A stretch of DNA of 64,000 bases from NCBI RefSeq assembly GCF_041146345.1, contig NW_027191411.1:124001-188000 (forward strand). The letters are read 5' to 3'. Positions 4,347 through 58,236 of the stretch are shown one piece after another. Made by a program: the position numbers and the translations under genes. Origin of the DNA: Neodothiora populina (taxonomy: Eukaryota). The notes below the pieces were generated by a model that saw only the letters and a list, made by a program, of their open reading frames with translations, ran no database searches and was not told where the DNA came from. The number at the start of each line of letters is the position of its first letter. Within the stretch, counting starts at the first letter, position 1.

Positions 4347-4758
4347 ACCTTTGTCTATGTTCAATGCGCAACATGACCAGATACAGAAATAAGAAGTGTA
4401 GATTTTTATTATCCATTAAGTTCCGCATATCCTTCTTGTGTGTCTTTTTCTATCAGTAAATGTAAAAATAGCAAGTATGACTTTGCCCAACAATGGAGGG
4501 GGTATAAACCGTTGACAGAAACAGGTATTAAATCATGCCAGTCGCATCTCCATTGCAATGCCCTCCGTGCGTATGTTGTGTACACACATATGACTCATGT
4601 CTTTTCCTCTGCTAGACATTCTCTCTGTCTTCATCGAACTGTATGTTCGTCGCTCATTAAAGTAAAATTAATTTCATCGTCAAAAGAAGGCGTTTCCTTG
4701 CTCATAAATGCGTGCATGACATGCGAGGCGCAATAGATCAGTCAAGAAAGAGAGTCCT

Positions 4759-26990: not shown

Positions 26991-27109
26991 CCCATACTAT
27001 TCCGTTCCGCCATTGCTCTCAAGCATAAGACGCAGCAACAAGCAGGCAAGAAGTTCAGAGCATACTTCCAATTCCTTCTGCTTTTCAGTGATCCTCAATG
27101 CAGCTCAAA

Positions 27110-28441: not shown

Positions 28442-28907
28442 ATAGATGGTCAACCAATGGAAATTGGTTAAGCTTAGGGTGATGAGATAATCTCATTCAA
28501 ACTTGGGAAAACAAGTGACTCTTTTGTTTGTTACTTAGTTTAATATTCCGGGATGGGAAGAGAATATCGACAAGATGAAATTGTGGTCGACTCAAAGTAC
28601 CTAGTTCGTGCCTAGCTACTGATGCTATGAAATACGAGTGGGTGTTGCTCTGATATTCCTCAATGATGGGGCCACTAACCACGACAACATTAAACAGTAC
28701 AATCTTCGTGGACCGGTATGTCAATCAGTCCCGGTAGTCACCATAATGGACGCGATGAGATGTAGATGTAGAATATGTATCTCCATTCCTGGGAAGTAAT
28801 TCGTAGCATGACCTCCGCCTTGCCGCGGCAAACTCGGCGTGTAGTTTCCCGCTAGACGTCACGTAACTATGCTTTCAATTTGTTGCGCTTCTACACTGCC
28901 TACAGAG

Positions 28908-37800: not shown

Positions 37801-39651
37801 AGAGAACATGTCTTCATCCACACCAAAAGCATCGTCATACACGGATGAGTTTTCTTTATCGTCATAGGTTGGGACATGCTTGGACAATGGCCGGGGAGAT
37901 CGTGTGGCCGTCCTGGCTGTGTTTTTTGACCGGGTCGCAGTCGTGTTTGGCGTCACACGGCTTCTTCGTGTTGGCGATTGATGGGTGGCGTGATCATCTT
38001 CATAAGTATTGTACTCAGACAAGTCCGGATACACAGAAGGCTCGTCTTGACGCATTGTCGCCCTCGCAGTGGCAAATTGAGTCTGCATGACACGACCGGC
38101 ACTGGGCTCGGGAGACTGGAATCTTGGAGGAGCCAAGGCGGGATGTTGTGTGGACTTGATCGAAACAGTGGGCTTCTTTGGACTGGGCGGTAGAGGGCCA
38201 AGGCAGTGTAAAGATTTCAGGACGCGCAGAAGAGGGAGACACTGAGCTTTCAGTTGCTTCTCCTCGCACTTGACTTCGTAGAGAGCACGCTTCTCGGCTC
38301 TGGGGTCGGAAGCCTTTTCTATTTCCCGGACAACGACATCGACCAAGCGCCGCTTCTCCTGTTCGATTGCTGTCAAACGATCCTTCATCACATGCAATTT
38401 CTTCAATGTTTCGCAGATCTGCTTGTGCTGTTCGACGTTGTCGGTAACGTTTGGCGGAGGCTCGTCCTCATCACACTCCAGAAGAGCAGATCTGTAGGCA
38501 TCGAGAGCGAATTTGAGTCGTTCATCAGCTTGTGCGCAGCGTTTCGTGATGTTTTCGGCCGTCCAAGTCGAGAAAATGTCCCACAAGTCAGTGTCTTCAG
38601 AGGTCATGACAGCCATGCCAGACGACATTGGCGCAGTACCGGGGGTACCTGGTAGAGCGGACAAAGACGGGGTGCACGGAATGCGAGGCATAGGTGAGGG
38701 TAGGCTGCGGGCTTTGGGTCTTACCGGAGAAGCGCGAACAGGCAGTGTTTCCTGAATTTCTTCGACATCAAACTCGTCATTGATATCATCGTCCGAGTCT
38801 TCAATCTCAAATTTGACCTTCGCCTTGGCGGTGTCATGACGATGTGATGCGGCATCAGACAGAGAAAGTGAAGGCTCGCTGAGTTTGGCAGGTGGTCGAG
38901 GAGCTAGAGTCGAGTAAGGAGGTGGCGGTTGATCAGGAACATCGGCGAGAACATCATCAATCATCTGATAACTGTCGTCTAGTCCCGATGTATCTTCGAC
39001 GGTCGTGACCGGAGCCAAGTGAGGTGTTCTTGAACGTGACTTCCTCGCGGGCAGATGTTCGCGGAATTCCTCGCTCTTTCTCTTTCTGCCTGCCACAGGC
39101 GCTGGCGAAGCGATTGATGGCGTCGAGTGGTATGGCTCATCAAAGTCGTCGGTCAAGTCCATAAAGTCACAGTCGGCAGAGATGAGGGCGGGTGTACGCC
39201 GACTTTTGGCTGCCGACGCGTTCGTTGGCGCAGACACGGGCTTCCTCTCTCTCGCTGCAGAGGCTTCTGCTCTCTCATGGCCATCCTCGACCTTTCTCGC
39301 TATCCCGGGCGTCTCTTTCACAGGCGAGACAGGTGGATTTCTCAACCTGGCCATGTTTGACTCCGTCTCTTCTCTTGCTCGTCGTGAACAAGATGGCCGC
39401 GTCGACGTCTTCCCTTCGAGTGGCGATTCCTGGGCGCGCTGTCGTTTCACTGTGGCCGGTAGAGGTTGAAGGATAGCCGTAGCAGAGGACTCATTGTGTG
39501 CGTATGCAGGAAGTGCATTTGTCGATAGCACAGGCAATGAAGAAGGAGGAATGGGTGGAAGTGGCGTGGTATTGACGGGCAGGCAGGGCTTCTCCCTCAA
39601 CAGCCAACGAAGATGCTCGTCCAGGTTATTGCGTGTCATTGGGCGAGTCAT
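34831..39651 (-). CDS. SGS1: RecQ family DNA helicase (Sgs1/MusN/QDE-3-like), single exon
   Basis: 1606-aa ORF with MPTGGGKSLCYQLPA, DEAHCVSQWGHDFRPDY, ATIAFGMGIDK, YYQETGRAGRDG, Zn-binding CRR...CDNC, RQC and HRDC-like regions. Confidence 0.95.
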   Translation of the reverse strand: MTRPMTRNNLDEHLRWLLREKPCLPVNTTPLPPIPPSSLPVLSTNALPAYAHNESSATAILQPLPATVKRQRAQESPLEGKTSTRPSCSRRAREETESNMARLRNPPVSPVKETPGIARKVEDGHERAEASAARERKPVSAPTNASAAKSRRTPALISADCDFMDLTDDFDEPYHSTPSIASPAPVAGRKRKSEEFREHLPARKSRSRTPHLAPVTTVEDTSGLDDSYQMIDDVLADVPDQPPPPYSTLAPRPPAKLSEPSLSLSDAASHRHDTAKAKVKFEIEDSDDDINDEFDVEEIQETLPVRASPVRPKARSLPSPMPRIPCTPSLSALPGTPGTAPMSSGMAVMTSEDTDLWDIFSTWTAENITKRCAQADERLKFALDAYRSALLECDEDEPPPNVTDNVEQHKQICETLKKLHVMKDRLTAIEQEKRRLVDVVVREIEKASDPRAEKRALYEVKCEEKQLKAQCLPLLRVLKSLHCLGPLPPSPKKPTVSIKSTQHPALAPPRFQSPEPSAGRVMQTQFATARATMRQDEPSVYPDLSEYNTYEDDHATHQSPTRRSRVTPNTTATRSKNTARTATRSPRPLSKHVPTYDDKENSSVYDDAFGVDEDMFSHVMGSPPAPVIIEDDEDYGDVDEDEEHFLNIADHTENRHARGSFAQQSTPRPVFGELAMNGNPRHKKPSPAKQLDLMQHPWSRDVKRALQHLFKLRGFRTNQLDAINATLSGKDVFVLMPTGGGKSLCYQLPAVVDSGKTRGVTLVVSPLLSLMEDQVYHLRKLGVQAYFINGEMAKAERDQIMAGLDEHDVEDFVRILYITPEMIAKSQAFLRIFENLHRRRKLARIVIDEAHCVSQWGHDFRPDYKELGSIRRNFPGVPVMALTATATENVKTDTKNNLGIAGCETYAMSFNRPNLFYEVTSKPKGAALLKAIVDIVNGKHYKQSGIIYALSRKKCEKLAQELVSSGIRAHHYHAGMKPEDKSKVQKKWQEGFYQVIVATIAFGMGIDKADVRFVIHHSIPKSLEGYYQETGRAGRDGLRSGCYLFYGYQDMTALMRMIDEGDGSYEQKQRQRDMLRKVVQYCENRSDCRRVQVLQYFAESFDQKNCQGACDNCTSDSTFITKEFTEYAKKAINLVGEFKKPRKVTLIQCQDIFRGAGQKKTVASNSDLDGYGAGAELDRGEVERLFGRLLAEEALQEISDTNNGGWTVQHLVLGKTAQEFISRGRRLELHVPSSPNGRSAVARAAKPRSRVAAVDFPSTNISSPVHNAMRRRKAVSPRRGNNAHAGSMMVDSDPDDDDYEEDDFEPVRVSTVPRTRRNKDVGPPITIDEKMDNLNSIHQMIVEGFVEEAKKEAQRILVSRGLRTAPFSDTIFREMAIGFPTTEQGLANIPNVDTYQVKQYGKAFLRMIKQAKSHYDEMMLQSEERVQDPNRETVIDLVSDDDDDNDNDDEYGSLDESDLDDGIERRSTYFKPNARVAAFNARITATQAATQANQEMPPPPPAKGARRGKATATRRPQSARDSTDSTGSTSGRGSRYNSRKASSTSSRGRNSAGVKKRATTSKRSSDAGSMSEFVYKDKSKSASRRGGSSRGGGRGGSGGGIGLMPT

Positions 39652-39777
39652 TGGACATGGCCATGTTGTCTTCTTGTCGTGTGATTGTCACGGTATGGAG
39701 AGGATGTCGACATTCACTGAAAGTAGAATGACTCGAAGGTGGAATTACTCGAAGTCGCTCTTTCCTCAAGACTTTGG

Positions 39778-40021: not shown

Positions 40022-40213
40022 CAGGCAAGTCGCTATGGTTGACTCATCTACTGTGGGACCAGATGGACGACTTTAGGCAGACATATTGTAGATAGCACCC
40101 TTTCAATGATCAGGTCATCTCTCTGATTCACACTCCCACACATTGTACGTACATGGATGCAGACATCTCGAAATCTCAATCCGCTTCATAAAACACATTT
40201 CAGTATCATAAGA

Positions 40214-41924
40214 ATGGAGACACATGTTCTACCACAAAAGTCTTCGGTAGACAAAGCGCGGTCTTCCATCATCGCGACTCTCTCAGACGAGCCCAGAGAC
40301 GACGCTACATGTAAGGACGTGATCAGCGCCCTCACCCAAGGACTCAATCAAGCAAGCCTGTCGTCTAGATACTATGGGTTCGTCATTGGAGGAGCCACGC
40401 CGATATCACGTTTTGCCGACAACAAAGTCACCGAGTTCGACCAGAACGTGCATGTTCACCTTCCCGACGAGACCATTGCTACCGACATCGAGCATGCTGC
40501 TTCGAAGATGCTCTGTGATCTGGTCAATCTCGATCCCCAGAAATGGACACATAGGATCTTCACCACTGGAGCCACTGCTAGCAATGTCGTTGGACTGGCC
40601 TTGGGTCGCGAACATGTCATCCGACAAGCCGGTCTTCGTGAGAATGCTGACGGTTCTCTTCCGAGTGTTGCACAGCTGGGCCTGCTCAGAGCGACGCGGT
40701 TGGCAAATGTAGACGAGATCCAGATCCTGACCACCGTACCGCACTCGTCTATAAGAAAAGCCGCTGCTCTCGTCGGCTTGGGTCACCAGTCAGTAAAAGA
40801 CGTGGGACGTGACGGTGCTGCTGAAAAGCATCTGTTCGACTTTGACAAGCTCGAACTGGAATTGCAGAAATCTAACACCGCCTCCATAATTGCTGTTTCT
40901 GCTTGCGAGGTGAACACGGGATTGTTCGCCACTCGCGGAGCAGATGACTTCGGGACACTGCGCCTGATGGCGGACAAGTACGGTGCCTGGATTCATGTTG
41001 ATGCAGCTATTGGTCTTCTGGCCCGTGTCTTGCTTGGCCGTAAAGGCACCGCACCGCAATGGGCAGAGTACGAGAAGATCATGGCAGGAGTCGAAGGACT
41101 CGAGTTGGCCGACTCGATTGGCGGAGACGCACACAAGCTTTTCAATGTGGTATGTTACTACATGACTTTGTAAACAACATTCACTTCACTTCTTACCAGT
41201 GTCAAACTTACCACTCACCATTCTGCAGCCATACGACTGCGGCATCCTGCTGTCGCGACACTTGTCTCTGGCACAAGCCGTCTTTCAAAACCCCGGCGCA
41301 GCCTACTTGTCCACCTCAACCAGCAAAACCAACACCAACATCAACACCAACAACAGCGCCGCAATGCCCTCACCACTAAACATCGGCATCGAAAACTCCC
41401 GCCGCTTCCGTGCTCTGCCAGTCTACGCGAACCTGATCCGCTACGGCCGCGCAGGCTACGAAGACATTCTCCTGCGACAGATCGAGCTGGCGCGGGAGAT
41501 TGCCAGATTCATACTCCAGCACGACGCGTATGAACTGCTGCCTCCTTTGGAATCCAGCACTATTCCTGCTTCTGAAGCAAGGCACAGAGACGACGAGCGG
41601 ACGGTCGAGAACAAGCGGCTTGAAGACGTGTTCATGATAGTGTGTTTCAGAGCTGTAGATGATGGGTTGAATGGGCGATTGGCGGATGCGATCAAGAAAA
41701 CGCACAGGGTCTATGTTTCTGGTACTTCTTTCCATGGGGCGCCAGCTGTGCGGTTCGCGGTATGTAAAGAAAAGATGAGGAAAAAAAAGGGAAAAAAAAA
41801 CGAGAAAAGCACATTACTGACATGCGCACCCACGCTCTAGGTCTCCAACTATCAAGTCAACGTCGACGAAGACTTGACGTGTATCAAAGAGGTCCTCAAC
41901 GAGGTCGCTCACAGCAATCAATGA
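40214..41924 (+). CDS. Group II PLP-dependent amino-acid decarboxylase; introns 41150-41228 and 41760-41840
   Basis: Motifs RYYGFVIGG, FTTGATASN, HSSIRKAA, WIHVDAA, GDAHKLFNV|PYDCG (PLP Lys), ENSRRFRALP. Introns splice in frame. Confidence 0.88.
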
Positions 41925-42335: not shown

Positions 42336-43753
42336 TCAGTCCCAGACAAGAATAGGCTTGACGACCCGACCTTTGATCATGTCCTCGAGGGCATCCTTGA
42401 AGTCTGCCACGGGGTACTTGCGCTGCAGTTTCTCGACCGGCAGACGGCCTTCTTGATAGAGTTTTGCTAGGAAGGGTATGAACTGTTGCCGGTTAGCTTT
42501 CACTAGCTCTTACTGGGGTTTGGAGAATATGGAGGGAGAGGAGTGAAAGAAAGGGGAAAGGGAACAGTTACGTACCTCTTTGCTGTACGCATTACCCTGA
42601 TGGCAACCGCGATACGTCTTGGCCGCAGTCAGCATGCCGAACACATCGACAGCGACAGTCTTTCCAGGTGGTGGGCCGCCGACAGTGACAGCCAGGCCGC
42701 CAGGTCCAACGAGAGCAATCATGTCCGCCACGACGGGGATGACGCCTGTGCAGTCGACCGCAGCATCGAGTCCTTCGCCATCAGTAATCTCATTGATGCG
42801 GGCCTTGAGATCTTCCTTTGCGGAGTTGACTGTGTGGGTGACGCCGAGTTTCTTGGTCAGTTCCAATCTCTCGTCTGCGATATCGATTGCGATGATGGTG
42901 GACAGTATGTCTTGGGCTTTGTCGCTGAGGTGCACGGCGGCCATGATGGCGGCAAATCCCACGCCGCCGGCGCCGAAAATGGCCAGCGATCGCACTTTGT
43001 TCTCCACTGGCTTGATCACGTTGAAGACGGAGCCGGCTCCTGTCTGGAAGCCGCAGCCCATGGCACAGACGACATCAAGTGGTAGACTCTTGTCTATCTT
43101 GACAAGTGAAGCCGATTGCACTATGGCAGGGTTGCAGAACGACGATTGCCCGAAGAAGTTACTGTTGAGAGATTCACCCTCCTTTGCGAGGGCAGCATCG
43201 CCGTCGGCGCTGCTCTTGCCTCGTTTGATGGGAGTCGAGCCATCCTGTCTCTGGCCGCCGAAATTGTATGCGAACATGTGCGTGCAGTGCCACATGTGGC
43301 CGGTCCTGCAGCTGTGACACTTGCCGCAGTAGTTGTACGACAACACCACATGGTCGCCCTGCTGCACGTCTGTCACGTCCGCGCCTGTCTCGAGCACTAT
43401 GCCTGCACCTGTGGATCCATAACAGAGAACATATTAGTGATATGTAGGACGAAAAGGCAGAAACGCGAATGCGAGAAGGAAGAAGAGACTTTGTTGGGAA
43501 GCCGGACTCGTCTCTGCTCCTTTCGGGCCGATGGGAACATAGATATCAACGATTCATCCATACCTTCGTGTCCCAGGACGACTGGAAATGGCATGGGAAT
43601 GTGTCCATGCTGCACCGCCAGATCGGTATGACAAATTCCAGTGGCTTTGAGCTGCACCAACACTTCGTTCGGCCGGAGGGAGTCGAGTTCCACCTGAGCA
43701 CGCTCAAAGGGCCCGCCTTTCTCAGACACGACCAGCGCAGTTGCAGACACCAT
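42336..43753 (-). CDS. Zn-dependent aryl-alcohol (benzyl-alcohol) dehydrogenase, MDR family; introns 43409-43563 and 42483-42575
   Basis: ATGICHTD, VLGHEGAG, structural Zn CGKCHSC..G...HC, FFGQSSF, MGCGFQTGAGSV, FGAGGVG, C-terminal VVKPILVWD. These are signatures of the XylB-like benzyl-alcohol dehydrogenase group. Confidence 0.88.
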
Positions 43754-44216
43754 TTCGTCGTCTTTTTGTATTTATATTCCTTCCGCCTTGGTTCTTGCCA
43801 AATCCCACGAGTCAGCGAATCGGTGGAAGACAAGATGACAATCTGCGGTATCCTGCGGAGTCAAGTATTCTTTACCCCAACTGTTTGCTTTGTTTGCTTG
43901 GCCTTTGGTAAGACAAGACCCACGAGTTGAAGTGCAAATAAAAGTTTGGGGTAAGCTTACGCGAGCTAGTCAGTGCTTCGCGGTCGATAGATTGCAGAAG
44001 AGATTGAACTGGCATCATACAGAACTCATTTCCGAGTGGCATGGGCCCAGATGATATCCACTCCTGGCAAGCTACCGCTGCTAGCCTCGTCGCGTGGGAT
44101 GGCCCGCCAAGCACGAGCAGGGCTAATTCGTAAGCAAGGCAGATCATGTGGAGTCGGAAGCGGGTCTGCGTGGGTGAAGGCGGGGATTCTCCTGCGGGGT
44201 TCTTCGTCTCCCCCCG

Positions 44217-44271
44217 CGGAAAGGCATCCGCCACGACTTCGACACGGTATAATCCATCGGAAGAGGCACCG
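44217..44271. promoter_or_regulatory. Two CGG-N8-CCG sites in the ADH/ALDH divergent promoter
   Basis: CGGAAAGGCATCCG (44217-44230) and CGGAAGAGGCACCG (44258-44271). Confidence 0.6.
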
Positions 44272-44585
44272 GGTAGGTCTAGAGTCGCAACGTCGTGTTC
44301 GGCTGATATTCGCGAGCTGTGCGGCAGATCTCGAGGTGGGGAAGAGAGACAAAAAGAGCTCTAGACGATTCAGGATGATTTTCGCGACCGAGGGATTGGT
44401 TCCCAGTTCCACCGGTAGCTCTGCATATAATATCCCCTAGTTGCCCTTAATCCCAGCCGGTCTGTGGGTCGTCATACATATTTCACTCTACCAAGAACCA
44501 ATCAATACCCCCTACACCATCGTCTTGAAACAGACAAGAGCTATATTCAAGAATCATATCGTCTGCAGCAATAAACATCGTAATC

Positions 44586-46165
44586 ATGGGACACGCAATC
44601 AACGGGAATGGTGCGGTTGGCACTCAACCAGTCCCTCTGCACATCGACGGTCGTGAAGTCCACACGGAGTCGGACCACGCAGTCATCAGCCCGCGCAGTG
44701 ATTCCGAGCTCTGGAAGTTCAGCAGTGCCTCTGTAGAAGATGCGACCAAAGCCATCGCCGCTGCAGAGAAAGCCTTCCCGGGATGGGCCAAGGTGAAGCC
44801 TGCGACGAAGAGAGACATTTTCTTCAAGGCAGCCACCATCTTCGAGTCTCGCGCCGAGGAACTCGCCACGTACATGGCAGAGGAGACCGGTGCTGAGCAA
44901 AAATTCATTGACTTCAACATCTCTGCGACCATCAGTCAAATCAAAGATATCGCCGGCAGAATATCTGCTATCCAAGGTTTCTATCCCACCGTAGACGCAG
45001 AGGGTCGCAGTGCAGTAGTGATCAAGGAGCCATATGGAGTCGTTTTCGGCATCGCACCCTGGTAAGTGCTAACTCGTGTGCAATCGGAGATGAATCTAGA
45101 ATATTGACGATGCTCTAGGAACGCACCCTACATTCTGGGCTGCCGCGCTTTCTCGTACGCCCTCGCGACCGGCAACACCGTCGTCCTGAAGGGCTCCGAG
45201 CTCTCGCCGAGATGCTTCCACGCCATGGTCGACATCTTCTACGAGGCAGGCCTTCCATCTGGATGCCTGAATCTCCTGTTCGTCAAGCCCTCGGATGCCG
45301 CCGAAGTCACGACATCCATTATTGCCCACCCCTCCATCCTCAAGGTCAACTTCACCGGTAGTACTAGAGTCGGAAGCGCGGTCGCTGCAACCGCCGGTAA
45401 ATACCTGAAGCCGGTGTTGATGGAGCTCGGAGGCAAAGCCACAGCAATCGTTCTCGAGGATGCAGATATACAAAAGGCCGCTCTTGGCTGCGCTCTAGGC
45501 GCCTTCCTCCACGTAAGCAAAAACTGTCAGAGGATCAAACTGATGAATATGATGCTAATTTGCCACAGGCTGGCCAAGTTTGCATGGCAACCGAGAGGAT
45601 AGCAGTGCACTCAAGCATCAGAGACAAATTCGTCGAAGCATTCAAGGCAACCATCGACAGCGTGTTCCCGCCCGACCTACCACCTGCCCATCTCATCTCA
45701 GCAGAGAGCGTCGAGCGCGTGCGAAAACTCGTCGCCAATGCTCGCGAGAAGGGAGCCGAGCATCTGCACGGACCGGAGGACCACACCTCGTCCGAGAGGA
45801 CGGCCAAGTTGCGACCCATTGTGCTCGGTAAAGTAGACGAGAACATGGAACTTTACCACGGCGAGTCATTTGGCCCTGTCGTGTCCCTGTTCACATTTGA
45901 CACCGTCGAGGAGGCCATCAAGCTCGCCAACGACACCGAGTATGGCTTGGCTGGCGCTGTCTTCACCGAGAACCTCGGAGTTGGTCTCCGGGTAGCCAAG
46001 GCCTACACCACGGGCGCAGTGCACATCAACAGCATGTCAATTCACGACGAGGCGTCGCTCCCTCACGGCGGTGTCAAGCAGAGTGGTTTCGGCAGATTCA
46101 ATGGCACTCAGGGTTTGGATGAGTTTTTGAGGACCAAGGTCATCACCTGGGAGGATTCTCTTTGA
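44586..46165 (+). CDS. Aromatic aldehyde dehydrogenase (salicylaldehyde/vanillin dehydrogenase-like); introns 45062-45118 and 45513-45568
   Basis: Motifs KEPYGVVFGIAPWNAP, LKGSELSP, NFTGST, LMELGGK (catalytic Glu), GQVCMATER (catalytic Cys), ESFGP, IHDEASLPHGGVKQSGFGRF. Confidence 0.88.
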
Positions 46166-46271
46166 TTTGACTTCTATGATTAGCGATGATGATAAGGTGT
46201 ATATACCTCGCTGACGCCTTTCAATGCTTTAGTATATTCATGACACAGTAAACACTTGAACTTTATTGTTT

Positions 46272-48900
46272 CTATTGTCCTCCCCATTGAAAGTTGTTGG
46301 GTAGTGCATTGAGCCATGATAAATCATTCATGTTGAATGACATGTTGAATCCGTCCACGTCCATCCCAGAGTCAAGCATGCTCGACCCCTCGGCCATGCT
46401 TTCTTGTTGTGGTTGCTGTGGATAATCCGAGTATCTCGCTCCCTCTGTCACCACGCTCCCAGCTGCTCCTACATAGGATCGGTAATCTGGTCGTTGTTGT
46501 AGCGATTGCGCTGCTTCTTCATTGCGCGTCGCGGAATCAGAGACATTCGAGCTCGAGCCATATTCTGTCGCGGCAGGTGTCTGATGCCTCTCGGTTGGCC
46601 CTTGGGTCTTGTGTAATGGGACACGGTGGAATAAGAGCTCGAGAGCAGCTATACTTCTGGAAGCTGAGCTGCTGAATAGTCGGTACTGGTCCAAGATCGT
46701 CATCGCACTTCGCCACGATCTCATGATACTGTCTTTCGGGATTTCCGAGGCGATGGACGGACAGAGGAGTGCCGCGATGAGGATAGTCGCCGCCGTGTAA
46801 ACATACAAAATGTTGTACCACCAAGCAGGCAAAGGGCCGGTCATCGCTGGGCTTTCAGGCAGACGATTGTGTATGGTGTCAATGGCGTCCTTGGCGGACT
46901 CGATGCAGAAGATGGAGCAGCGGAACTCGAGATGTCGCGCCAGGGTGGCGTTATTGAACAAACTATCAGGTGACGAAACATCGGAGACTGCAGCGAATCT
47001 AGCGAGAGCAGGCCTGAAAAGGAGGATGCGAACATGTAAATACCTAATTTTTGCTGTTAAAATCTCCTTCAAGTCCTTCCAAACTAAGCAATTGTGGACC
47101 AAATGCAAGTGGACTCACCGAGAATGGAGTATGTTCGCCTGCCGTTGGAAAACGTCGTCCTCAATTTCACGTCTTTTCGAGTCAAGGTGTGTAGGGAGGC
47201 TTTTCAACCAGGTGTTAAGTAGCAAGTCGAGTTCAAGCAAAATTCCGTACCCACTGGCCTTGTTGAGTGTTCCAGTTTTGTCATCACGACATTCATGACT
47301 GGGAAACAGCTCATCACAGCCGTAGAGTGTTACAAGTATCTTGTTGAGAATCTCGTACAAGTCAAGCGTCTTTATGAAGAAGTCACTGAGCATTGGTGTA
47401 TTCGATGGTCGTGTGGGTTGTTTCTCGGGGCTATCGATAAAGTACTCATCGTCGAGCGCCAAGGGCATGGGTACTTTGGCAGCGGCAGCCTGGTCGATCA
47501 TGGCCGGGCGACCATATGTCATAGACACCACTCTATCCATAAGCACACATCCATGCCATATCTTTCGAGCAAGCTGCCTCTCTCGAGGACTCGATAATTT
47601 GTCTGTGGTTTCTTTCATGTGAAGACCAAGGCTCTGTGCGCAGCGAATCGCTTGTCCAACAACAATCCAGCATTGGTGCACCAAATTCGTACTTTGCAAA
47701 TACTGTGCAAGGAGAAGAAAAATCTGTATCGAATGCACTGTGGCATCCTCCCATATGTTGTAATACGAGGTATCCTTCACACGACTAATGAACATTTCCG
47801 CAGATGCAGCACGTTGTGCGGGGTCAATCGATTCATCCAACTTGCATGAAATAGCAAAAATGACGTTGATTTGGCAGATAAAATAGCTCTTCAGATGTGG
47901 ACCACGTCTGTAAGACCACAATTCTTGATAGACGCGGTTTGCATCTAGTTTTTCAACAAAGGGATACAATGGATAGACAATACGCCAATAGATGGCGAAG
48001 AGCTTGTCACAGATGTCCTTTGGTGGTAGGATCGGGTCGTGGACTGAGTTCCATTGTTGCTGGTCATGAGCTGATGGCATTGACTTGGTCTCAAGTAAAG
48101 ACCTCCGGGATGGATGAGTCGCTGGAGACTGTGCTTTCGCGTCCATGGCCGAACGTATCTGTCTGGTGAAGCTTCCGGCACTTGAAGGTCCAAAAAATGC
48201 CTGAGTCTGCGATGCATCTGCGGTCGCGCCCATCATAGCGTTGACTTCTCCATCCTCAGCATCGTCGCACGGTGTCGTATCTATCGCGATGGCGACGGAA
48301 CTTGCCCGACGACCCGATGGCTCACCTCGCCACTGTCTCTCGTTCGATATGTAGCGATTAGACGAAGCATTCGGGTCAGTCTCGGAAATATGTAGAGGTC
48401 GTGCATTAGTGGACCAGTCACTATGACTTCTGCGCCAAGGACCGTCAGGTCCTTCAACACTTTGATATTGCTGGACTCTGGGAGCCGTGTCATTTGTCAC
48501 AGCGCTTTGCGGGGTGAAGTGGTTCCGCGTCACATCCTGTCCAGGAGAGCTTGGTCCAGTCCGGAAGTCCCTCGACTCTAGGTCTTTGATCTTATTGTCA
48601 AGACGTGCGATGTGGTCTCTCAGAGTGTCAATGTTCTGAGTTGAAGTTGTTCTCAATACACACTCGGCATCTGCGCCAAATCGCTTCATGCATGGGCCGC
48701 AGACTGAGTTGTTAGACTAGATTCGTCACATGATAACTAAAGACCGGGAGTCAGATCTTACCGGGTTGTTGTCCATCACACTTGGATTTTCTTGAGCGGC
48801 ATTCCACACACGCCCTCGAGATCTTATGCCTTTTGGCTTTGGGTGGACGTATCTCACCATCTTCTTGCGGTGGACAGCTCGTTAGCTGTGCATCTGCCAT
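46272..48900 (-). CDS. Zn(II)2Cys6 pathway-specific transcription factor; introns approx. 48704-48761 and 47044-47118
   Basis: RACVECRSRKSKCDGQQP|VCGPC.......C cluster; FFGPSSA, YWRIVYPLYPFV, AQSLGLH, RKIWHGCVLMDRVVSMTYGRP. Confidence 0.9.
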
Positions 48901-49369
48901 GAGAACCTGCACCTCGGGGTTCGCTGTCAGTGGAGATTGGGCAGAGCACCTACAGCTTCGGAAGTGCAGTCGTCGTGGGGGTGATTGGAGCGGATAGTGG
49001 AGTAAATGCGGAGAAACACTTGATGCATTATTCCGAGCTCGTGCAATGGTTCGGTAAAGTATAAAATCTGTGGGATTGTGGAGCATCAGGGCTTCAGCGC
49101 GGGGTGTACGCGAAGCACCAGTAGTGCATCGATGCGTAAGGTAATCAATGAATTGGATGCGCCACAAGGCTTACAGGCGCATAGTTCTCATCATGCGTCC
49201 CTGCCACTCATAATCGATGTAGCAGCTTCCGAAAGCTTCTATGGAGACCAAATCGAAGATGGAGAATGTCGCCACCTTAATCCACTACATTAACGGAACG
49301 TTAGTGTGGGTGAACCTTGCGGGGTTTGTTCCCCTGCTCGTCGGTTTCAGGCTCGGTTGATGTTCAGCT

Positions 49370-49383
49370 CGGAAAACTTTCCG
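49370..49383. promoter_or_regulatory. CGG-N8-CCG site in the TF/FAH divergent promoter
   Basis: CGGAAAACTTTCCG, the exact reverse complement of the site at 53129-53142. Confidence 0.65.
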
Positions 49384-49520
49384 GACATGTGGTCCACATC
49401 TAGCTCTATAGTGAACAATGATCTCGTTTAGATATAATGAGCAGCCTACTAATGAGATGTGTTTCTCCATTTACAATTACCGCCAGACTTCGCAACTATC
49501 AGTCAATTCTGCAGCGCAAC

Positions 49521-50446
49521 ATGTCTTTCTCGAGGTTGATCCGTTTCGAGGGCGCCGATGGTGCTGAGCATTTTGGAGAGCCCCAGATCGACAACGCCGA
49601 TGATCTTACCAAGCTCCTCGAGAGTGGAAAGCTCGTCGCAACCGTTCTCGAGGGTGGCTCGCCCTTCGATCTCAAGTCCGGCAGTGGCAACACACAAGAA
49701 GTCAAGCGTATTCTCCCAATTTTAACACCTAAGGACGTGCCCATCATCAAATGTATCGGACTCAACTACATCAAGCACAGTATGTGAGACTGCAGGGAAA
49801 ATCAAAGGAATTAGAACTGACAGTTATTGAAGTTCAGGAAGGTGGCCGAAAACCCCCACCATACCCATCAGTCTTCATCAAGCCTTCTGCATGTGTTGCC
49901 TCCAGTACTGAGGATGTACCTATCCCAAAGCTTGCACAGGAAGACCAATGCGACTATGAGGGCGAATTGTCAGTCGTCATAGGCAAGGCTGGCAAGAACA
50001 TCAGCAAGGAGGACGCGCTCGATTATGTCGCAGGTTACGTCGCTTCCAATGATGTGTCTGCAAGAACTTGGCAACGTGATCCTGCGTACGCTGGCGGCGT
50101 TCCACAATGGTGTTTCAGCAAGGGATTTGACAAGTATGCTCCGCTAGGGCCCATGATCGTCTCCCCCAAGGTTGTGGGAGATGCGAGCAAGCTCCGTTTA
50201 CAAACCTGGGTGAATGGCGATCTAAGGCAGGACACCGAGACGAGCGATCTACTTTTTGGAGTCAAGGAGATCATCAGCTTCATCAGCCAGGGCACAACGT
50301 TAGAGCCTGGAACTGTTGTCATGACTGGAACTCCCGCTGGCGTGGCAATGGGCATGAAGACACCTCTTTATCTCAAAGATGGTGATGTTGTTAAGGTCGG
50401 CATTTCAGAGCTTGGATACGTGGAGAACAAGATGGTTTTCGAGTAA
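49521..50446 (+). CDS. Fumarylacetoacetate hydrolase family protein (putative fumarylpyruvate/maleylpyruvate hydrolase); intron 49780-49832 (alternative in-frame acceptor 49823)
   Basis: Motifs CIGLNY..H, FIKP, DYEGEL, NDVSAR, SKGFD..APLGP, TGTP. Substrate is inferred from cluster context. Confidence 0.88.
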
Positions 50447-50741
50447 AGCAGCATTTAGAGCACAGAGATGATTCCCCTCATCGCTTGAGAAGCTTAAATT
50501 TTCCAAGGGTCGCAGAGCTGCGGGGTAAATGTATTTATTCGTATATAATAGTGAAAGCGTATTCCGCTGTCATGCCAATCATACAAGTGCAATTCCGCAC
50601 ACAGATGCGGAATGGTTCCGATAGCCATAACTCCAAAACCCGCCCCGTCATGGGTGACAAGTAAATAAGAAGGCCACGATGCCAGTTCGAAAAATGAAAA
50701 TGAACTGTTCTGGGGCAATAGCAAACAGTGATCGAGCCAAC

Positions 50742-51252
50742 ATGTCGGCAAGCTCGTACCAAGGGTCATGTCTTTGCGGGGACATCAAGTTTAGCGTTGA
50801 AGGGGAACCCCAAAAGGTGTTCAACTGCTACTGCTCGGATTGCACCAAGAATGCCGGAGCTCCGTACCAGCTGGTCAGAATTCCAGACAATCCACACTGC
50901 ATGCACGCAGATACGTTTCTTAACTTCAATGTTGCTAGATTGCCAAATATGATTCCAGCAAATTAAGTGTCGAGGATCCGAAGAACCTGCAAACAGTCTT
51001 CACAATCAAAAAGACCATCAGCGGGCATGAGAAAAAGAAGGTTTTCTGCAGGCAGTGTGGTTGTACACTCTGGACTATCCCCATGCACCACAAAGGCGCA
51101 TTGACGATCATGAGGACATCATTGATCGATGGAGGGTGAGTATCACGGGACATATGGAATGAGTCTTGACTGAAATGGTCAGAATCGAGAGATGGAAGCC
51201 GGAGATGGAGATGTTTGGCCAGCTTCGACCTAGGTGGTTCAAAGAGACCTGA
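50742..51252 (+). CDS. GFA/CENP-V (Mss4-like, glutathione-dependent formaldehyde-activating family) Zn protein; introns 50874-50938 and 51136-51182
   Basis: GSCLCGDIKF, CYCSDC, FCRQCGCTLW and C-terminal KPEMEMFGQLRPRW after splicing. Not recovered as a single ORF in the supplied track. Confidence 0.85.
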
Positions 51253-51748
51253 GACTTTGCGAAAGCGTTACGGCACTGGTGCATTCTGGATATGGTGACA
51301 TTCTACATGAAGGAAGTTGGACCTCGGAGAACTCATCAATTACAATTAATTTATCTGTCGTTCGGCACACGTCACGGCAGTGCTCAATCATATGTCTCAC
51401 TGTGTTTTCGCTTTTGTGGCAGTGCTCTTCGAGATCACTGATCAGAACTCACGATTCACTATGGCATAGAAAAGAACAATCCGATGTATATGCGATGTAA
51501 GTCATTTATGCAAGGGGATTGAATATGTGAATAATTACTATCGTTAGATTCATGAAATACAGTCAATATGCATGTCAAGTGACCTGCAAGTTGTATGCGA
51601 GAAATCATTGCGCATGCAATGCCGAAAGTCCAATGGGTGTGAAGGTGTAAGGCAGCCCAACACTTTACTTCTGTCCCGTAGCAGGGGTATCTCTATGGCA
51701 TCGAAAGTGGGCTCTCGCCTAATCCTCAACAGTTTCTGCTCCATTCGC

Positions 51749-52807
51749 TCAAGTCATCTCGACGAATGACAAATTCTCCACCAAGGGCCTGTCATTGATT
51801 GCGAAGAGGTAGGCGGATCCCGAGCCCATAGTACTTGTGTGGGTCACCTCACTGTATGAGGGGACACTGAAAGTATCCCTGCCGACCCACTCAATCTTCT
51901 TCGGCTCTTTCTCTCTTGGCGTCTTGATCAACGAGTAGCCCTTGCCGTCGTAGACATGGTAGATGTACGAAAGGACCTCCTTGCTCACAGAAGTTGTATG
52001 ACCAGCCTCGACACGCTCAGCTTGTGCAGAGATGGTCTTCGAAAGGTGTGAACCACCAGCGAGACGATACTGGTAAATAGCATGCTGAACCCTTTGATTA
52101 TCCAAGTTCTCTTGGACACCCTTCCAAGGGATGCGCGCGGCACTTTCGGGAGCCGGTGCGGACGGATAGCGTGGCGCAATGTACTGTTCAACGAAGTTGA
52201 TTGGGAATTGCTGCCAAACGGGCAGATCAAGCCCGTCGAGCCAAATCACAGGACCAGTGCCTTCGTTGCCATGGTCGTGCCATTGCCAGCTGGGAGTCAA
52301 GACTACATCGCCTCTGTGCATAACAATCTTCTCGCCCTCGACAGCGGTGAAACCTCCGCTACCTTCAATGATGAAGCGCAGAGCGAAGGCTCGGTGTCTG
52401 TGGGCCGGGGCAGTCTCGCCGGGCATAACAATCTGCAGACCTCCGTAGATGGTATCAGTCGTGCATGGCGGTGGTAGAACATCATCAACGAGGACAAGGA
52501 CACGACGTTCGGCATCCTCGGCAGCGACGAGGTCGGCTGCTCGTAACAGAGCCGGGTGTATCTTCTCGTACTTCCAATGGGTTGGTACTGCCTTAGGGTT
52601 TGGGAAAGGAGGAACCATTTTGTCCATGGCCGTCCACAGCGGAGTCACATTTTTGTCCCCCAGCGTGGCAAAGTACTCTTCGGTGAGCTTCTTGTGCTCA
52701 TCAGCCTCGTCGTTGGGACGATGCTCCAAGTGGGAAGATGAGACAGTTTCCTTGTGTTTGTATGCAGCTGTAGCCACCGTTGGCTGGACTGTAGCAGTGA
52801 AACTCAT
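51749..52807 (-). CDS. Gentisate 1,2-dioxygenase (bicupin), intronless
   Basis: PLW, AERRVL, TDTIYGGLQ..MPGETAPAHRH..FALRFIIEG, LTPSWQWHDHGN, WLDGLDLP. Fe-binding His triad present in cupin 1. Confidence 0.92.
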   Translation of the reverse strand: MSFTATVQPTVATAAYKHKETVSSSHLEHRPNDEADEHKKLTEEYFATLGDKNVTPLWTAMDKMVPPFPNPKAVPTHWKYEKIHPALLRAADLVAAEDAERRVLVLVDDVLPPPCTTDTIYGGLQIVMPGETAPAHRHRAFALRFIIEGSGGFTAVEGEKIVMHRGDVVLTPSWQWHDHGNEGTGPVIWLDGLDLPVWQQFPINFVEQYIAPRYPSAPAPESAARIPWKGVQENLDNQRVQHAIYQYRLAGGSHLSKTISAQAERVEAGHTTSVSKEVLSYIYHVYDGKGYSLIKTPREKEPKKIEWVGRDTFSVPSYSEVTHTSTMGSGSAYLFAINDRPLVENLSFVEMT

Positions 52808-52827
52808 GATTGATTGATTGATTGATT
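52807..52827 (+). repeat. (TGAT)5 microsatellite abutting the dioxygenase start codon
   Basis: tgattgattgattgattgatt immediately upstream (minus strand) of the ATG. Confidence 0.8.
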
Positions 52828-53128
52828 TACTGATTGACTGTATACAGTATATTATAATCGTGGATGTCGAGTTCTGAGGCTGGCAAGGCTAAGGAGCTTG
52901 AAGGCTACATACTTATATCGCGAAAGCTGTTTCACCACTTCTCCAACCCTTCATTAAGTGGCGAGAGCCCGAGAGAACCATATGACTGAGTGAGATGCTT
53001 CCGGACGAACCATGCATTACCTCCAACCTGCTGAGGTAGGAAATGCCTCGAGCTTAGCGTGAAAGTACCCCATGGGGAGCCATCACAACAACGGTGCTGG
53101 AAGCCATTCCGAAAAAGCGGAGACCCCA

Positions 53129-53142
53129 CGGAAAGTTTTCCG
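53129..53142. promoter_or_regulatory. CGG-N8-CCG site in the dioxygenase/MFS divergent promoter
   Basis: CGGAAAGTTTTCCG, overlapped on both sides by SYGGRG matches. Confidence 0.65.
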
Positions 53143-53577
53143 GGGCGGTACATCTCCTGTCTACATGTCTTCGATCGACCTCGAAACAAGCAATATCGGG
53201 TCACGACCTAGGTCTTCGGAAGCACCCCACGTGGATCTAGAGCACGCCAATCCAACGGGTTGACAGCTTAGCTGAAGTTAGAGCAGGTGACTAGACACAA
53301 AACTGGACATTGGACTGGACTCGGTTTCGTTGAGCCCTAGATGGAACGCATCCGATGACTCCTAGATCGATCCAGTGGCACCATGACCAACCACGGGATC
53401 ATCCCCATGGGGTTCCAGAGCGCACGCACCTTACCGTTCACTGGTCTCTAGTGAATAGTTGATTTGCAAGGACTACGAAGGGTGTATAAATACTCCTATC
53501 GCCTCCAATGTAGATCACCACGGCCTATCCTCACATCTCAACCCATAGCATTATTTGCATCACACAGGCTCTTCACA

Positions 53578-55279
53578 ATGTCGTGGAACAATGATCCTAA
53601 GATGGAGGTGAGCAACATCGAGTATGCCACCTCACCCTCTCCATCCTTGGGGGATAAGGACAACTTCGATGTACAGGAGCATGTCGTCCGAGAATTCGAT
53701 GTCAAGGAAGGCTACGTGCTCGAGGCCCAGGAGGGCGAGACCAGACTCAAGACAGCCTTGAATGGTCACACCGTCTTGATTCCACAGCCCAGCGATGATG
53801 CCGAAGATCCCCTCAACTGGTCACCAAAGAAGAAGGCTCTACTACTTATCGTGGTTTCTTTAACAGCAGCTCTGCCTGATTATGGTAGTGCCGTTGGTGC
53901 CGTGACCCTGATCGCCCAGGCAAAGTGAGTCCTCTGATCCTCATCATTACAAAAGTGAAAGACACTAACTCGTCTCTTCAGGATCTGGGGACTGAGCCCT
54001 GATACTGTCAACCACTCAGCTGTAGGCAATGTCCTTATGCTTGGTATCGGTGGTATCTTTGCCATTGTCATGGCATCCTACGTTGGTCGTGCTCCCACCA
54101 TCTTTTGGTTCCTCGTACTTGCTCTTGCCACAGCAATCTGGTGTGCCGCAGCGCAGAGCTTCGAGTCCTTTATGGCAGCACGCATCCTCAACGGATTCTT
54201 CGAGACGGTCTCCCAGGCTATTGGTCTGACTTTCATCCAAGATGTGTTCTTCTTCCACGAGAGAGTGTAAGTGATGTTCTTGTCACAATTATATCATCGC
54301 AGGTTACTGATGCATCTTCTACAGACGCAAGATCAACATCTGGTCTGCATTCGTTATTCTTTCACCTTTCGTTGGACCCATGATCACTGCCTTCATGCTC
54401 ACCTCGCAACCGTGGCAATCTGCTTTCTGGCTCTACACTGCATTGACTGGCGCATTCCTCATCCTTGTGGTCCTCTTCCTTGACGAGACGTACTACGACC
54501 GCAGAATCGCACCAAGCCATCAGCCACCCAGGAAGTCTCGTATGCTGAGATTAGTTGGTGTCGAGCAGATGAAGTCGAGAAAGCTTCGCAACACCCTCTG
54601 GCAATCAGTCATGCGTCCAGTAAAAGTCATCTCCAAGCCCACCGTTCTTCTTTCTTGCATCTATTATCTCCTCATCTTCTCCTGGTCTGTCGGCATCAAC
54701 ACCACCCTCAGTATCTTCTTGACCAATCTCTACGGCTTCGACTTCAAGGGCATCGGATGCTTCTACTTCACTCCCATCGTCGGAGCCTTGGTCGGAGAAA
54801 TTACAGGTCACTGGATCCACGACTTCATCGCCAAGCGCTACATCAAGACGCACAACGGCCACTTCAACCCCGAAGTCCGTCTCCGAGCCGCTTACATCGC
54901 GACCCCGTTCCTGTGCGCCGGCCTCGTTCTCCTCGGATTCTCCCTCGAGCGCGGCTGGCACTACATGGTCACCTCGGTCGCCTGGGGCTTCTACGTCTTC
55001 GGCATCATGGTCACCACTGTGACCATCAACTCGTACAACCTCGACTCCTACCCCGAGGCATCGGGTGAAGTCGCCGCATGGATCAACGTCTTCCGTGTCA
55101 CGGGTGGCACAGTCATCAGTTACTTCCAGGTCAAGTGGGCGGCCAAGTCCGGCCCGATCATCAGTTTCGGAGTCCAAGGCGCCGTCTGCGTCGCTGCTTT
55201 CATCATCATCTTGGTTCTGCAGAAGTTCGGCAAGGCGATGAGGGCGAAGAGTGGTCCGCTCAATTTCCACACTGATTAA
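53578..55279 (+). CDS. MFS transporter (HOL1/DHA1-like; candidate hydroxyaromatic transporter); introns 53925-53981 and 54267-54324
   Basis: LIPQPSDDAEDPLNWS, YVGRAP, ARILNGFF, IQDVFFFHERVRKINIW, DETYYDR, PEVRL, about 12 TM helices. Confidence 0.88.
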
Positions 55280-56519: not shown

Positions 56520-58236
56520 TCATGGTGACGTTGGCCCTGGACTCCAAGTAGCCCCTCGCTGAGGAGGCATATCAATATCTTCTCCGTCGTCAGGTCCACC
56601 GAAGTCAGTATACAGCTCAGCCGTTTCTCGAAAACCATCCATCTCCGCCATATTATGTCTTGACGAGATGGTTCCGTTGACAGTGCTCCTCCTTCGCACT
56701 GGTGGTATCAGATCGCTATATGGGATGAAGCTTCGGAGATATGTAGGCGGAGCTGGACCTGGTTGGGTCAGGTCGGAATAGGTGGGATCTCTGCACTTAG
56801 CTCGGCGGTGATCAACAAGGTGTTTGGCAAGTTTTTCGAGTTCTCCGTGAACATCTGGATCACGTGTATATTCCATTGTATGGTGCTCGATATAACGAAG
56901 GGTTCGATTAGTTTTACCATCAGAGTCGATTGTGCAAGCATCCAATGCTATCTTTTCCAGCCCAGATCGAACGTTGAAGCGGCTGTAGGTAGTGTGGTGG
57001 GAACTCGCAGTCGCTGTAGGACATAGTTGTGTCATGTGTTGGTGGACCGGCTCTGGATCCCCAAGGCCCTTGATCGCCGTGCTGACGATATTGCGGATCT
57101 TGTAGATAAAACTCCCATCGCTGAACACGTTACACGGCGCATTCTTTCCTGTGCCGAGCGACACGAGATAGCGTATCCCTCCCGAAGTCCGTTTGCAATC
57201 AGTCAGTTGATGCATGATAGTGACCTCATTCCAAGCGACGATACTAGGGTTGTTGGCCATGATACCGCCGTCCATGTATTCGCTGGAATCAATCTTGGCA
57301 ATCTTGAAATAATGCGGTGCAGCAGACGTGCCACGTGCGGCCTCGAGAATGGTTGGCGAGTTTCGGTCACTTTGAATATTCAGGTCCAGCCATCGGGATT
57401 CGTGCTCGACGGAAGCATTGACAGCAGTGGCATCTCCCAGTGTGAGACCTGCGTTGTAATAGGTTCGGAAGAGGTGCGGTTTATGAGAAGGTTTGGCCCT
57501 CCTGGTCGCCACTACTCCACTATAGACAAGTTAGTATTTGTCACTATCGGTCTATTGCTGTCGGCTACGAGGGTAACTTGCACTCTAGTTTGACCAAAGC
57601 GAGAAGGACTGTCCTCGGTGAAGGCTACTGGATTCCACAACGCTGCATCGTTGTCCCTACAGTGTTGGCGGATTTTATCTTTCATGACTTTCTCCAGCTT
57701 GCGATGACTGTACTGGGTAAATCTTAGAGGGCGTTTTTTGCGAAATACCTTCGTGCCAAGATCTTCGTATGTATCAAGGCATTGTTTCACTGACATTCTC
57801 AACCGACCAAGCATGATGGCGATGATTCTGCAGGCCGTAGCGCATCACATGTCAATCAGTGAGGTCAAATGACATGGCTAATGACTCACCCGCCGGTACT
57901 TGTTCCGAACATGTAGTTGAAGTAGTGACAAGGTAGTGGAAGTTCCTTATCAATGTTGCCTGTCGTCTCTGCCTCTTGACCGTTCCGAAATGAGCGGGTC
58001 GTGTCATTTTCTTGCTCTCGACGACGAATGATTATCAGCAGCTCACGCAGTATTACAAGAGAGGAATAGCCACGTATGCCCCCTCCATCTACAAGAATCA
58101 GCGCTGCCCAGCTTGCCAACAGATCCTTGTTAGACGTCTTACCTATGGTGAGAACGCTTTCTCTGAGCTGGTCTGGGCAGCTGCACTCACGGGCATCAGC
58201 AGCACCGTACTGCTCAGACGAGCTGTCAGGCGCCAT
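56520..58236 (-). CDS. Patatin-like phospholipase; introns approx. 58091-58143, 57828-57889 and 57520-57581 (GC-AG)
   Basis: DGGGIRG oxyanion hole, GTSTG nucleophile elbow, MLGRL, AARGTSAAPHYF, DGG..ANNP (catalytic Asp), VSLGTG, YSRFNV. Confidence 0.85.

Follow-up and report, generated by a model that had tools for sequence, protein, structure and literature searches.

In a 64-kb stretch of the genome of Neodothiora populina (hereafter the window), the core genes of a fungal gentisate cluster stand beside an aryl-alcohol dehydrogenase (ADH) and an aromatic aldehyde dehydrogenase (ALDH), and a search of the window for the hydroxylase usual in such clusters was negative. Judging from the families of the enzymes, we think it probable that this ADH/ALDH arm oxidises a hydroxybenzyl alcohol by way of the aldehyde to a hydroxybenzoate, which enters the clustered gentisate cleavage. 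Fungal gentisate clusters and their ALDH are known; the coupling to an aryl-alcohol dehydrogenase is new among the literature searched. The seven genes of the cluster, at 42336-55279, form three divergent pairs: ADH with ALDH; a Zn2Cys6 transcription factor with an FAH-family hydrolase, which is followed by a GFA-domain gene; and a gentisate 1,2-dioxygenase (GDO) with a transporter of the MFS_1 family. The ends of the cluster are exact, the stop codon of the ADH lying at 42336 and that of the MFS gene at 55279, and the open frames from ADH to MFS are 389, 488, 831, 290, 132 (or 129), 352 and 528 amino acids long. Genes were called by Pfam scans of stop-to-stop open reading frames (ORFs) combined with splice-aware models, and these confirmed the gene content, order, orientation and boundaries given in an earlier note on this DNA.

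The oxidation arm is at the left end of the cluster. The ADH (42336..43753, minus strand; exons 43564-43753, 42576-43408 and 42336-42482, the last including the stop) has the Pfam domains ADH_N and ADH_zinc_N of a Zn-dependent enzyme. Among solved structures it comes closest to 5tnx (E 2e-78) and 1f8f (E 6e-78), with other alcohol dehydrogenases at 1e-46 or worse. The second of these is a benzyl alcohol dehydrogenase, the first is also counted among the benzyl alcohol dehydrogenases, and many of the homologues of the window protein are named aryl-alcohol dehydrogenase. The ALDH (44586..46165, plus strand; exons 44586-45061, 45119-45512 and 45569-46165) matches Pfam Aldedh in all three exon ORFs. 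Its three best matches in the PDB are vanillin dehydrogenase 9ihb (4e-104), salicylaldehyde dehydrogenase 6qhn (5e-102) and NahF 4jz6 (2e-92), and its ELGGK and GQVCM stretches, the motifs of the catalytic Glu and Cys, align with those of the aromatic aldehyde dehydrogenases. By family placement the ADH is XylB-type and the ALDH a member of the NahF/vanillin dehydrogenase clade. Both families are broad, and so the sequence cannot fix the substrate. The two gene models are identical letter for letter to the public N. populina proteins AAFC00_006554 (ADH) and AAFC00_006555 (ALDH).

The GDO (51749..52807, minus strand, Pfam Cupin_2) is a single-exon bicupin that belongs by family with the class III cupin gentisate 1,2-dioxygenases, and it is predicted to act on gentisate. 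It has 1795 homologues, many of them named gentisate 1,2-dioxygenase. Among solved structures it matches 2d40 (2e-63), 3bu7 (1e-46) and 2phd (1e-40), which places it nearer to the classical gentisate dioxygenases 2d40 and 3bu7 than to the salicylate-cleaving 2phd. Residues H136, H138 and H177 align with His119, His121 and His160 of the 2phd-type chains, and R101, Q125, R144, H179 and D191 align with Arg83, Gln108, Arg127, His162 and Asp174; all eight are invariant in an alignment of 36 sequences. We take the first three to be the three-His iron site and the other five to be substrate-site residues. Since all the classical catalytic residues that were checked are conserved, the alignment does not discriminate between gentisate and salicylate, with one exception: at the position of Ala85 in the salicylate enzyme, which presumably has a role in the specificity of that enzyme, the window GDO has Val, as do 2d40 and 3bu7. 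It is very improbable that the GDO cleaves salicylate directly in the manner of the Pseudaminobacter salicylate 1,2-dioxygenase, so that salicyl alcohol would be degraded without any hydroxylase. The similarity to 2phd and the proposal that structural diversity in the residues of fungal gdoG may relax specificity (Greene et al. 2014, PMC3914699) lend this reading something, but it has to contend with the closer match to the classical enzymes, with the Val just described, and with a neighbouring FAH-family hydrolase and GFA protein that suit maleylpyruvate and not the product of salicylate cleavage.

The other core genes were compared with GDO loci from metagenomes. A scan with the GDO alignment returned 80 loci, most of which look bacterial (an unsplit GDO match with FAH adjacent, at 45-49% identity); the eight that are eukaryote-like (L027, L035, L043, L047, L048, L049, L059 and L071) were examined by Pfam and tblastn. 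The window's order of regulator, FAH, GFA and GDO is repeated in L035, L048 and L049 and is rearranged in L043, and the divergent pairing of regulator and FAH is common to the window and the first three. Over these four loci, identity to the window ranges from 32 to 44% for the regulator, from 52 to 76% for FAH, from 43 to 49% for GFA and from 50 to 59% for GDO. The FAH-family gene (49521..50446, plus strand; exons 49521-49779 and 49833-50446; Pfam FAA_hydrolase, E 4e-61) encodes about 290 amino acids and is a candidate fumarylpyruvate or maleylpyruvate hydrolase. Its PDB matches are members of the FAH superfamily, including the maleylpyruvate hydrolase 6jvv and the putative fumarylpyruvate hydrolase 4maq. 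The GFA-domain gene (50742..51252, plus strand; exons 50742-50873, 50939-51135 and 51183 or 51192 to 51252; PF04828) has its relatives at 43-49% identity in the same place, between FAH and GDO, in L035, L048 and L049. When its exon 2 alone was compared by sequence with the PDB, no solved relative was found. In Candida parapsilosis a GFA-domain gene beside the gentisate cluster is induced 1402-fold on 3-hydroxybenzoate, and it has been put forward, as a speculation, for the missing glutathione-dependent maleylpyruvate isomerase (PMC5144973); the window protein is a candidate for the same function. For FAH the acceptors at 49824 and 49833, and for the last GFA intron those at 51183 and 51192, are equally possible, and alignment of homologues did not choose between them. 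The regulator (46272..48900, minus strand; exons 48762-48900, 47119-48703 and 46272-47043; Pfam Fungal_trans and Zn_clus) is 44% identical to the regulators divergent to FAH in L035 and L049. A GDO gene, an FAH gene next to a Zn2Cys6 regulator and a GFA gene beside the hydrolase, the marks of a fungal gentisate cluster, are all present, and by their sequences these four genes are the conserved core of such clusters, corresponding to the known lower pathway.

What is missing is the other mark, an in-cluster FAD hydroxybenzoate hydroxylase such as MNX2 or sahG. Neither FAD_binding_3 nor p450 was found by Pfam in the scanned ORFs of the window, which were all 53 of at least 170 amino acids and 91 of the 221 between 85 and 169 amino acids, the shorter ones being picked to cover stretches without a called gene. 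Nor did tblastn of four FAD-monooxygenase pieces from related loci give any match in the window at E <= 1e-3. The earlier note had reported no FAD monooxygenase or P450 inside the cluster; that statement holds and can be extended to the 64 kb, on the ORF scan for both families and on tblastn for the monooxygenase.

The related loci differ in this respect. Six of the eight eukaryote-like loci (L027, L035, L043, L047, L049 and L059) have an FAD_binding_3 monooxygenase no more than 10 kb from GDO; it is missing from L048 and L071. The GDO of L049 is the closest to that of the window among them (59%), and in L049 an FAD monooxygenase and an MFS gene occupy the place to the left of the regulator where the window has ADH and ALDH. 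With this arrangement and with feeders that vary from locus to locus, the picture in the earlier note of an ADH/ALDH arm standing in for the hydroxylase is a fair description of the architecture. Locus L071, a 5.3-kb contig, holds GDO, an ALDH 59% identical to that of the window and a Zn-dependent ADH together. In L048 a GH3 beta-glucosidase (2140-4636, plus strand), which also carries PA14 and Fn3-like domains, adjoins the regulator (5542-7147, minus strand) of the regulator-FAH-GFA-GDO core. This locus has no FAD monooxygenase in the 10 kb around, a hint that a third type of feeder may start from glycosides. Loci L047 and L048 come from one assembly (Ga0207886), in which one GDO locus has an FAD monooxygenase and the other the GH3 gene; two unlike GDO loci in one assembly recall the two cluster types reported for aspergilli. 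Another variable accessory is an Amidohydro_2 gene (11875-12873, minus strand) beside the GDO and FAD-monooxygenase pair of L059; we take Amidohydro_2 to be the family of the non-oxidative hydroxybenzoate decarboxylases.

In the pathway that we propose, a hydroxybenzyl alcohol would be oxidised to the aldehyde by the XylB-type NAD(P)-dependent dehydrogenase, and the aldehyde to the hydroxybenzoate by the NahF/vanillin dehydrogenase-type ALDH. Gentisate would be opened to maleylpyruvate by the cupin dioxygenase, maleylpyruvate would be isomerised by the GFA protein with glutathione, and the FAH-family hydrolase would release pyruvate together with fumarate (or maleate). Gentisyl alcohol and gentisaldehyde would be the only substrates needing no further enzyme, and that one of them is the substrate is a tentative suggestion, to which we give rather low odds. 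We hold it equally likely that the arm takes a mono-hydroxybenzyl alcohol and depends on a hydroxylase encoded elsewhere. In that case salicylate or 3-hydroxybenzoate would be made from salicyl alcohol, the aglycone of salicin and salicortin, or from 3-hydroxybenzyl alcohol, and an unlinked FAD enzyme (a salicylate 5-hydroxylase or a 3-hydroxybenzoate 6-hydroxylase) would lead on to gentisate. The six related loci that keep a hydroxylase beside GDO imply that such an enzyme is the usual partner of the core. Salicyl-alcohol glycosides are, moreover, the main phenolic glycosides of aspen. Aspen phenolic glycosides are also mentioned, with the class not specified, in a paper on the disease caused by N. 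populina (PMC8032200). There is a report of a salicylate 5-hydroxylase from a fungus (PMC12130555), and a salicyl-alcohol cluster of the bacterium Pseudomonas fluorescens GM16 includes a hydroxylase (PMC9959693). Against an unlinked enzyme, none is present in the 64-kb window, and a pathway with a toxic intermediate that has all its other steps clustered and one outside would be odd. To name gentisyl alcohol in preference to salicyl or 3-hydroxybenzyl alcohol with an unlinked hydroxylase would be pure inference, the two not being separable here.

The last gene, the MFS_1 transporter (53578..55279, plus strand; exons 53578-53924, 53982-54266 and 54325-55279), had been called a counterpart of the C. 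parapsilosis transporter HBT1 in the earlier note. The two are of the same category, MFS, but at 23-27% the window protein has little identity to the MFS genes of the hydroxylase-type loci L049 and L059, and a closer correspondence is not borne out.

We asked whether the ADH accompanies GDO in other species, reading linkage from the order of accessions or locus tags. At least four named species have an ADH homologue, 50-57% identical to that of the window, one to four genes from GDO. Lipomyces doorenjongii has GDO (KAK9427720), ADH (KAK9427721) and ALDH (KAK9427725) on one 37-kb contig. The pair is PYH76967 and PYH76970 in Aspergillus uvarum and KPI34553 and KPI34549 in Cyphellophora attinorum, and it is found in four strains of A. 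niger (e.g., CBS147322_2911 and CBS147322_2912), whose GDO is An02g12800. Four more GDO/ADH pairs were taken as co-located on contigs of 35612, 77082, 40642 and 19429 bp on the ground of equal contig size. In A. bombycis GDO has an ALDH as its neighbour (ABOM_011036 and ABOM_011037). The earlier note had offered, as a way to refute its proposal, that in no other species might the ADH and ALDH be in synteny with the gentisate genes; the linkage of ADH to GDO in these fungi disposes of that. Judged from these gene orders, the pairing is not a local accident, and it appears to be old and widespread, reaching A. niger. The same cluster type occurs in fungi without a tie to the Salicaceae, among them A. 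niger and Lipomyces, and is thus no innovation peculiar to life on poplar.

A GDO tree was made with FastTree from 142 rows, comprising 118 of the best 120 database matches (two shorter than 280 amino acids were dropped), 23 rows derived from the loci, and the window. The window GDO falls in a clade of 26 rows with support 99, which contains seven of the nine ADH-linked rows and none of the ten monooxygenase-linked rows. No metagenome GDO locus falls inside this clade. Its sister clade mixes ADH-linked with monooxygenase-linked rows and holds the A. niger GDO An02g12800. The ADH label requires three changes on the tree, compared with a mean of 7.7 when labels are shuffled, and none of 500 shuffles is as low.

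The three divergent promoters of the cluster share an element of the form CGG-N8-CCG. Two such sites lie at 44217..44271 in the promoter between ADH and ALDH (43754-44585), CGGAAAGGCATCCG at 44217 and CGGAAGAGGCACCG at 44258, both of the type CGGAAR-N5-CCG. The promoter between the regulator and FAH has CGGAAAACTTTCCG at 49370..49383, and that between GDO and MFS has CGGAAAGTTTTCCG at 53129..53142; the first of these 14-mers is the exact reverse complement of the second. Of the generic CGG-N8-CCG sites in the window, 4 of 11 are within the 2,222 bp of the three divergent promoters. The narrower CGGAAR-N5-CCG has seven matches (at five places) in the window where 1.07 are expected, and none of 100 shuffles reaches seven, a test that is partly circular because these promoters had been inspected before the motif was defined. 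Its sole site outside the cluster promoters, at 35881-35894 inside a RecQ-type helicase ORF (34831-39687), is probably there by chance. Sites of the CGG-N8-CCG class are also intergenic beside cluster genes in L035, L043, L047 and L049. A test for shared k-mers was not significant: it found a single 8-mer common to the three promoters, and 93 of 300 shuffles did as well. The sites are supportive, though not proof, of co-regulation of the seven genes, in which the Zn2Cys6 factor would drive the three divergent promoters through them.

The circularity of the motif test is one of several points that weigh against a metabolic coupling of the ADH/ALDH arm to the core. The GDO tree was built with FastTree and has no supports other than local ones, and four of the nine ADH-linked labels on it rest solely on equal contig sizes. 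The GDOs of Exophiala xenobiotica and Rhinocladiella similis, which are in the same clade as that of the window, are by their locus tags not beside the listed ADH matches. If ADH-linked clusters elsewhere should prove to keep a hydroxylase, its absence here would amount to a local relocation and not to a different pathway. Finally, Aureobasidium pullulans, the closest named relative, has the ADH-ALDH pair, and no Aureobasidium GDO is among the best 120 GDO matches, which implies that the pair can live without the core. The pair is adjacent on its own in two strains of that species, in Fusarium oxysporum (FOVSG1_013405 and FOVSG1_013406) and in Capronia coronata (A1O1_08266 and A1O1_08267), and, both families being broad, it could be a general detoxification pair for aromatic alcohols and aldehydes that is a neighbour of the gentisate core without feeding it. 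We consider mere neighbourhood of this kind unlikely, given that the linkage of ADH to GDO recurs over three fungal classes and Lipomyces, that the GDO clade is enriched for it, and that the promoter between ADH and ALDH has its CGG-N8-CCG sites in common with the promoters of the core. That the arm feeds gentisate cleavage is the reading we prefer.

Gentisate clusters that include a hydroxylase are well documented in fungi (PMC5144973, PMC5566891, PMC8283699, PMC7842363). That of C. parapsilosis comprises MNX2, HBT1, GDX1, FPH1, the GFA-domain gene CPAR2_704360 and the regulator CPAR2_704370 (PMC5144973, PMC5566891); the names GFA1 and GTF1 for the last two are those of the earlier note, the papers giving locus numbers. 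It has in common with the window GDO, an FAH-family hydrolase, a GFA-domain protein, a zinc-cluster regulator and an MFS gene, the last likened to HBT1 by category. The window differs in lacking the 3-hydroxybenzoate 6-hydroxylase and in having the ADH/ALDH pair. The GC cluster of A. fumigatus (adhG, sahG, gdoG, ctfG, sdoG, fphG and mfsG; Greene et al. 2014, PMC3914699) shares with the window GDO, fumarylpyruvate hydrolase, a C6 regulator, an MFS gene and an ALDH, and its ALDH is conserved across lineages (PMC3914699). In addition the GC cluster encodes a salicylate-hydroxylase-like monooxygenase and, as the proposed source of the aldehyde, a stilbene dioxygenase (PMC3914699). The window has neither, and here, where the ALDH is likened to adhG by family, the aryl-alcohol dehydrogenase is the likely source.

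The GDO-centred clusters of aspergilli termed "gentisate-like" are distinguished by the lack of a recognised (GST-type) maleylpyruvate isomerase (Martins et al. 2021, PMC7842363; FAMeDB preprint 2026, 10.64898/2026.01.19.700319), and their role was called unclear both in 2021 (PMC7842363) and in 2026 (10.64898/2026.01.19.700319). No GST domain was found by Pfam in the scanned ORFs of the window, but its GFA gene may be the isomerase. The A. terreus example, ATEG_06711-06714, includes an FAD monooxygenase, and no ADH is mentioned for it in the portions of the two sources at hand (PMC7842363, 10.64898/2026.01.19.700319). The nearest likeness for the oxidation arm is bacterial: in P. fluorescens GM16 the genes PMI19_01133-01136 encode an ALDH, an aryl-alcohol dehydrogenase, a salicylate hydroxylase and a catechol 1,2-dioxygenase and are induced by salicyl alcohol (PMC9959693). 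Here too a ring-cleavage dioxygenase shares its cluster with an aryl-alcohol dehydrogenase and an ALDH, in a poplar-associated microbe, but the route runs through catechol (the beta-ketoadipate route) and not through gentisate (PMC9959693). Our literature search found no paper on an aryl-alcohol dehydrogenase in a fungal gentisate cluster, no genes for the catabolism of gentisyl or salicyl alcohol in fungi, and nothing relevant on An02g12790, An02g12800 or An02g12810. The supplements of Gluck-Thaler and Slot and the Martins 2019 review may bear on the first point; in the accessible text of the Gluck-Thaler and Slot preprint the words gentisate, GDO and alcohol dehydrogenase are not present. 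The earlier note did not know this architecture as a characterised fungal pathway, and for the ADH link our search agrees, but an ALDH conserved in such clusters (adhG) was already published in 2014 (PMC3914699).

Several observations concern the locus in public records. The GDO ORF is intact and conserved, yet its best match in the protein collection is at 70% with none at 90% or above, and the exact sequence is not on record, unlike those of the adjacent ADH and ALDH genes. Public annotation may lack this gene or give another model of it, and if so, cluster mining based on proteins would miss this cluster. Four public runs under another organism code (2025, from one study) contain pieces of 150-220 bases identical to the cluster, at 43307-43505, 44564-44780, 46836-46993, 49509-49683 and 50853-51204, with boundaries constant between runs; some of the run contigs carrying them continue into unlike sequence, and the run contigs as a whole are uninformative on synteny. 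The cluster is flanked on the left by a Pyridoxal_deC gene (40127-41840, plus strand), an assignment that is weak (28 and 17 bits), and on the right by a patatin gene (56520-57530), both by Pfam. Farther to the left, at 27092-29941, a class-III aminotransferase (27092-28441, plus strand) is followed by a second Zn2Cys6/Fungal_trans regulator (28845-29941, plus strand), and with a sugar-transporter gene (32016-33767, minus strand) these may form another small metabolic unit.

The description of N. populina is based on cankers on stems of Populus tremuloides (PMC8375349), and the aspen running canker in Alaska has been attributed to this fungus (PMC8032200). The guess in the earlier note that the chemistry of the Salicaceae is involved, made from the DNA letters, suits an organism that is an aspen stem-canker pathogen (PMC8375349, PMC8032200). 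One might go further and suppose that the 26-row GDO clade encodes a hydroxylase-independent entry to gentisate, in which gentisyl alcohol or gentisaldehyde would pass through ADH, ALDH, GDO, the GFA isomerase and the hydrolase. The aspen fungus would then consume aglycones of the salirepin/salireposide type from poplar, and moulds such as A. niger the 6-methylsalicylate-derived metabolites of competing fungi. This is speculative, and we rate it a little below the suggestion of gentisyl alcohol or gentisaldehyde as the substrate in N. populina itself.

If it is true, a hydroxylase-independent route would give the "gentisate-like" clusters a function. Hardly any of the peripheral routes into gentisate have been mapped in fungi, and the loci compared here indicate that the fungal gentisate core can couple to different feeders: to a hydroxylase, to an ADH/ALDH pair and, in one locus, to a GH3 beta-glucosidase. 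Among the species with the ADH coupling is A. niger, where genetic testing is possible. The cluster also provides a candidate site for the regulator and a further instance of a GFA protein as the putative, long-sought fungal maleylpyruvate isomerase. For the aspen pathogen, it is a candidate for the use or detoxification of the aglycones of the benzyl-alcohol-type phenolic glycosides of its host.

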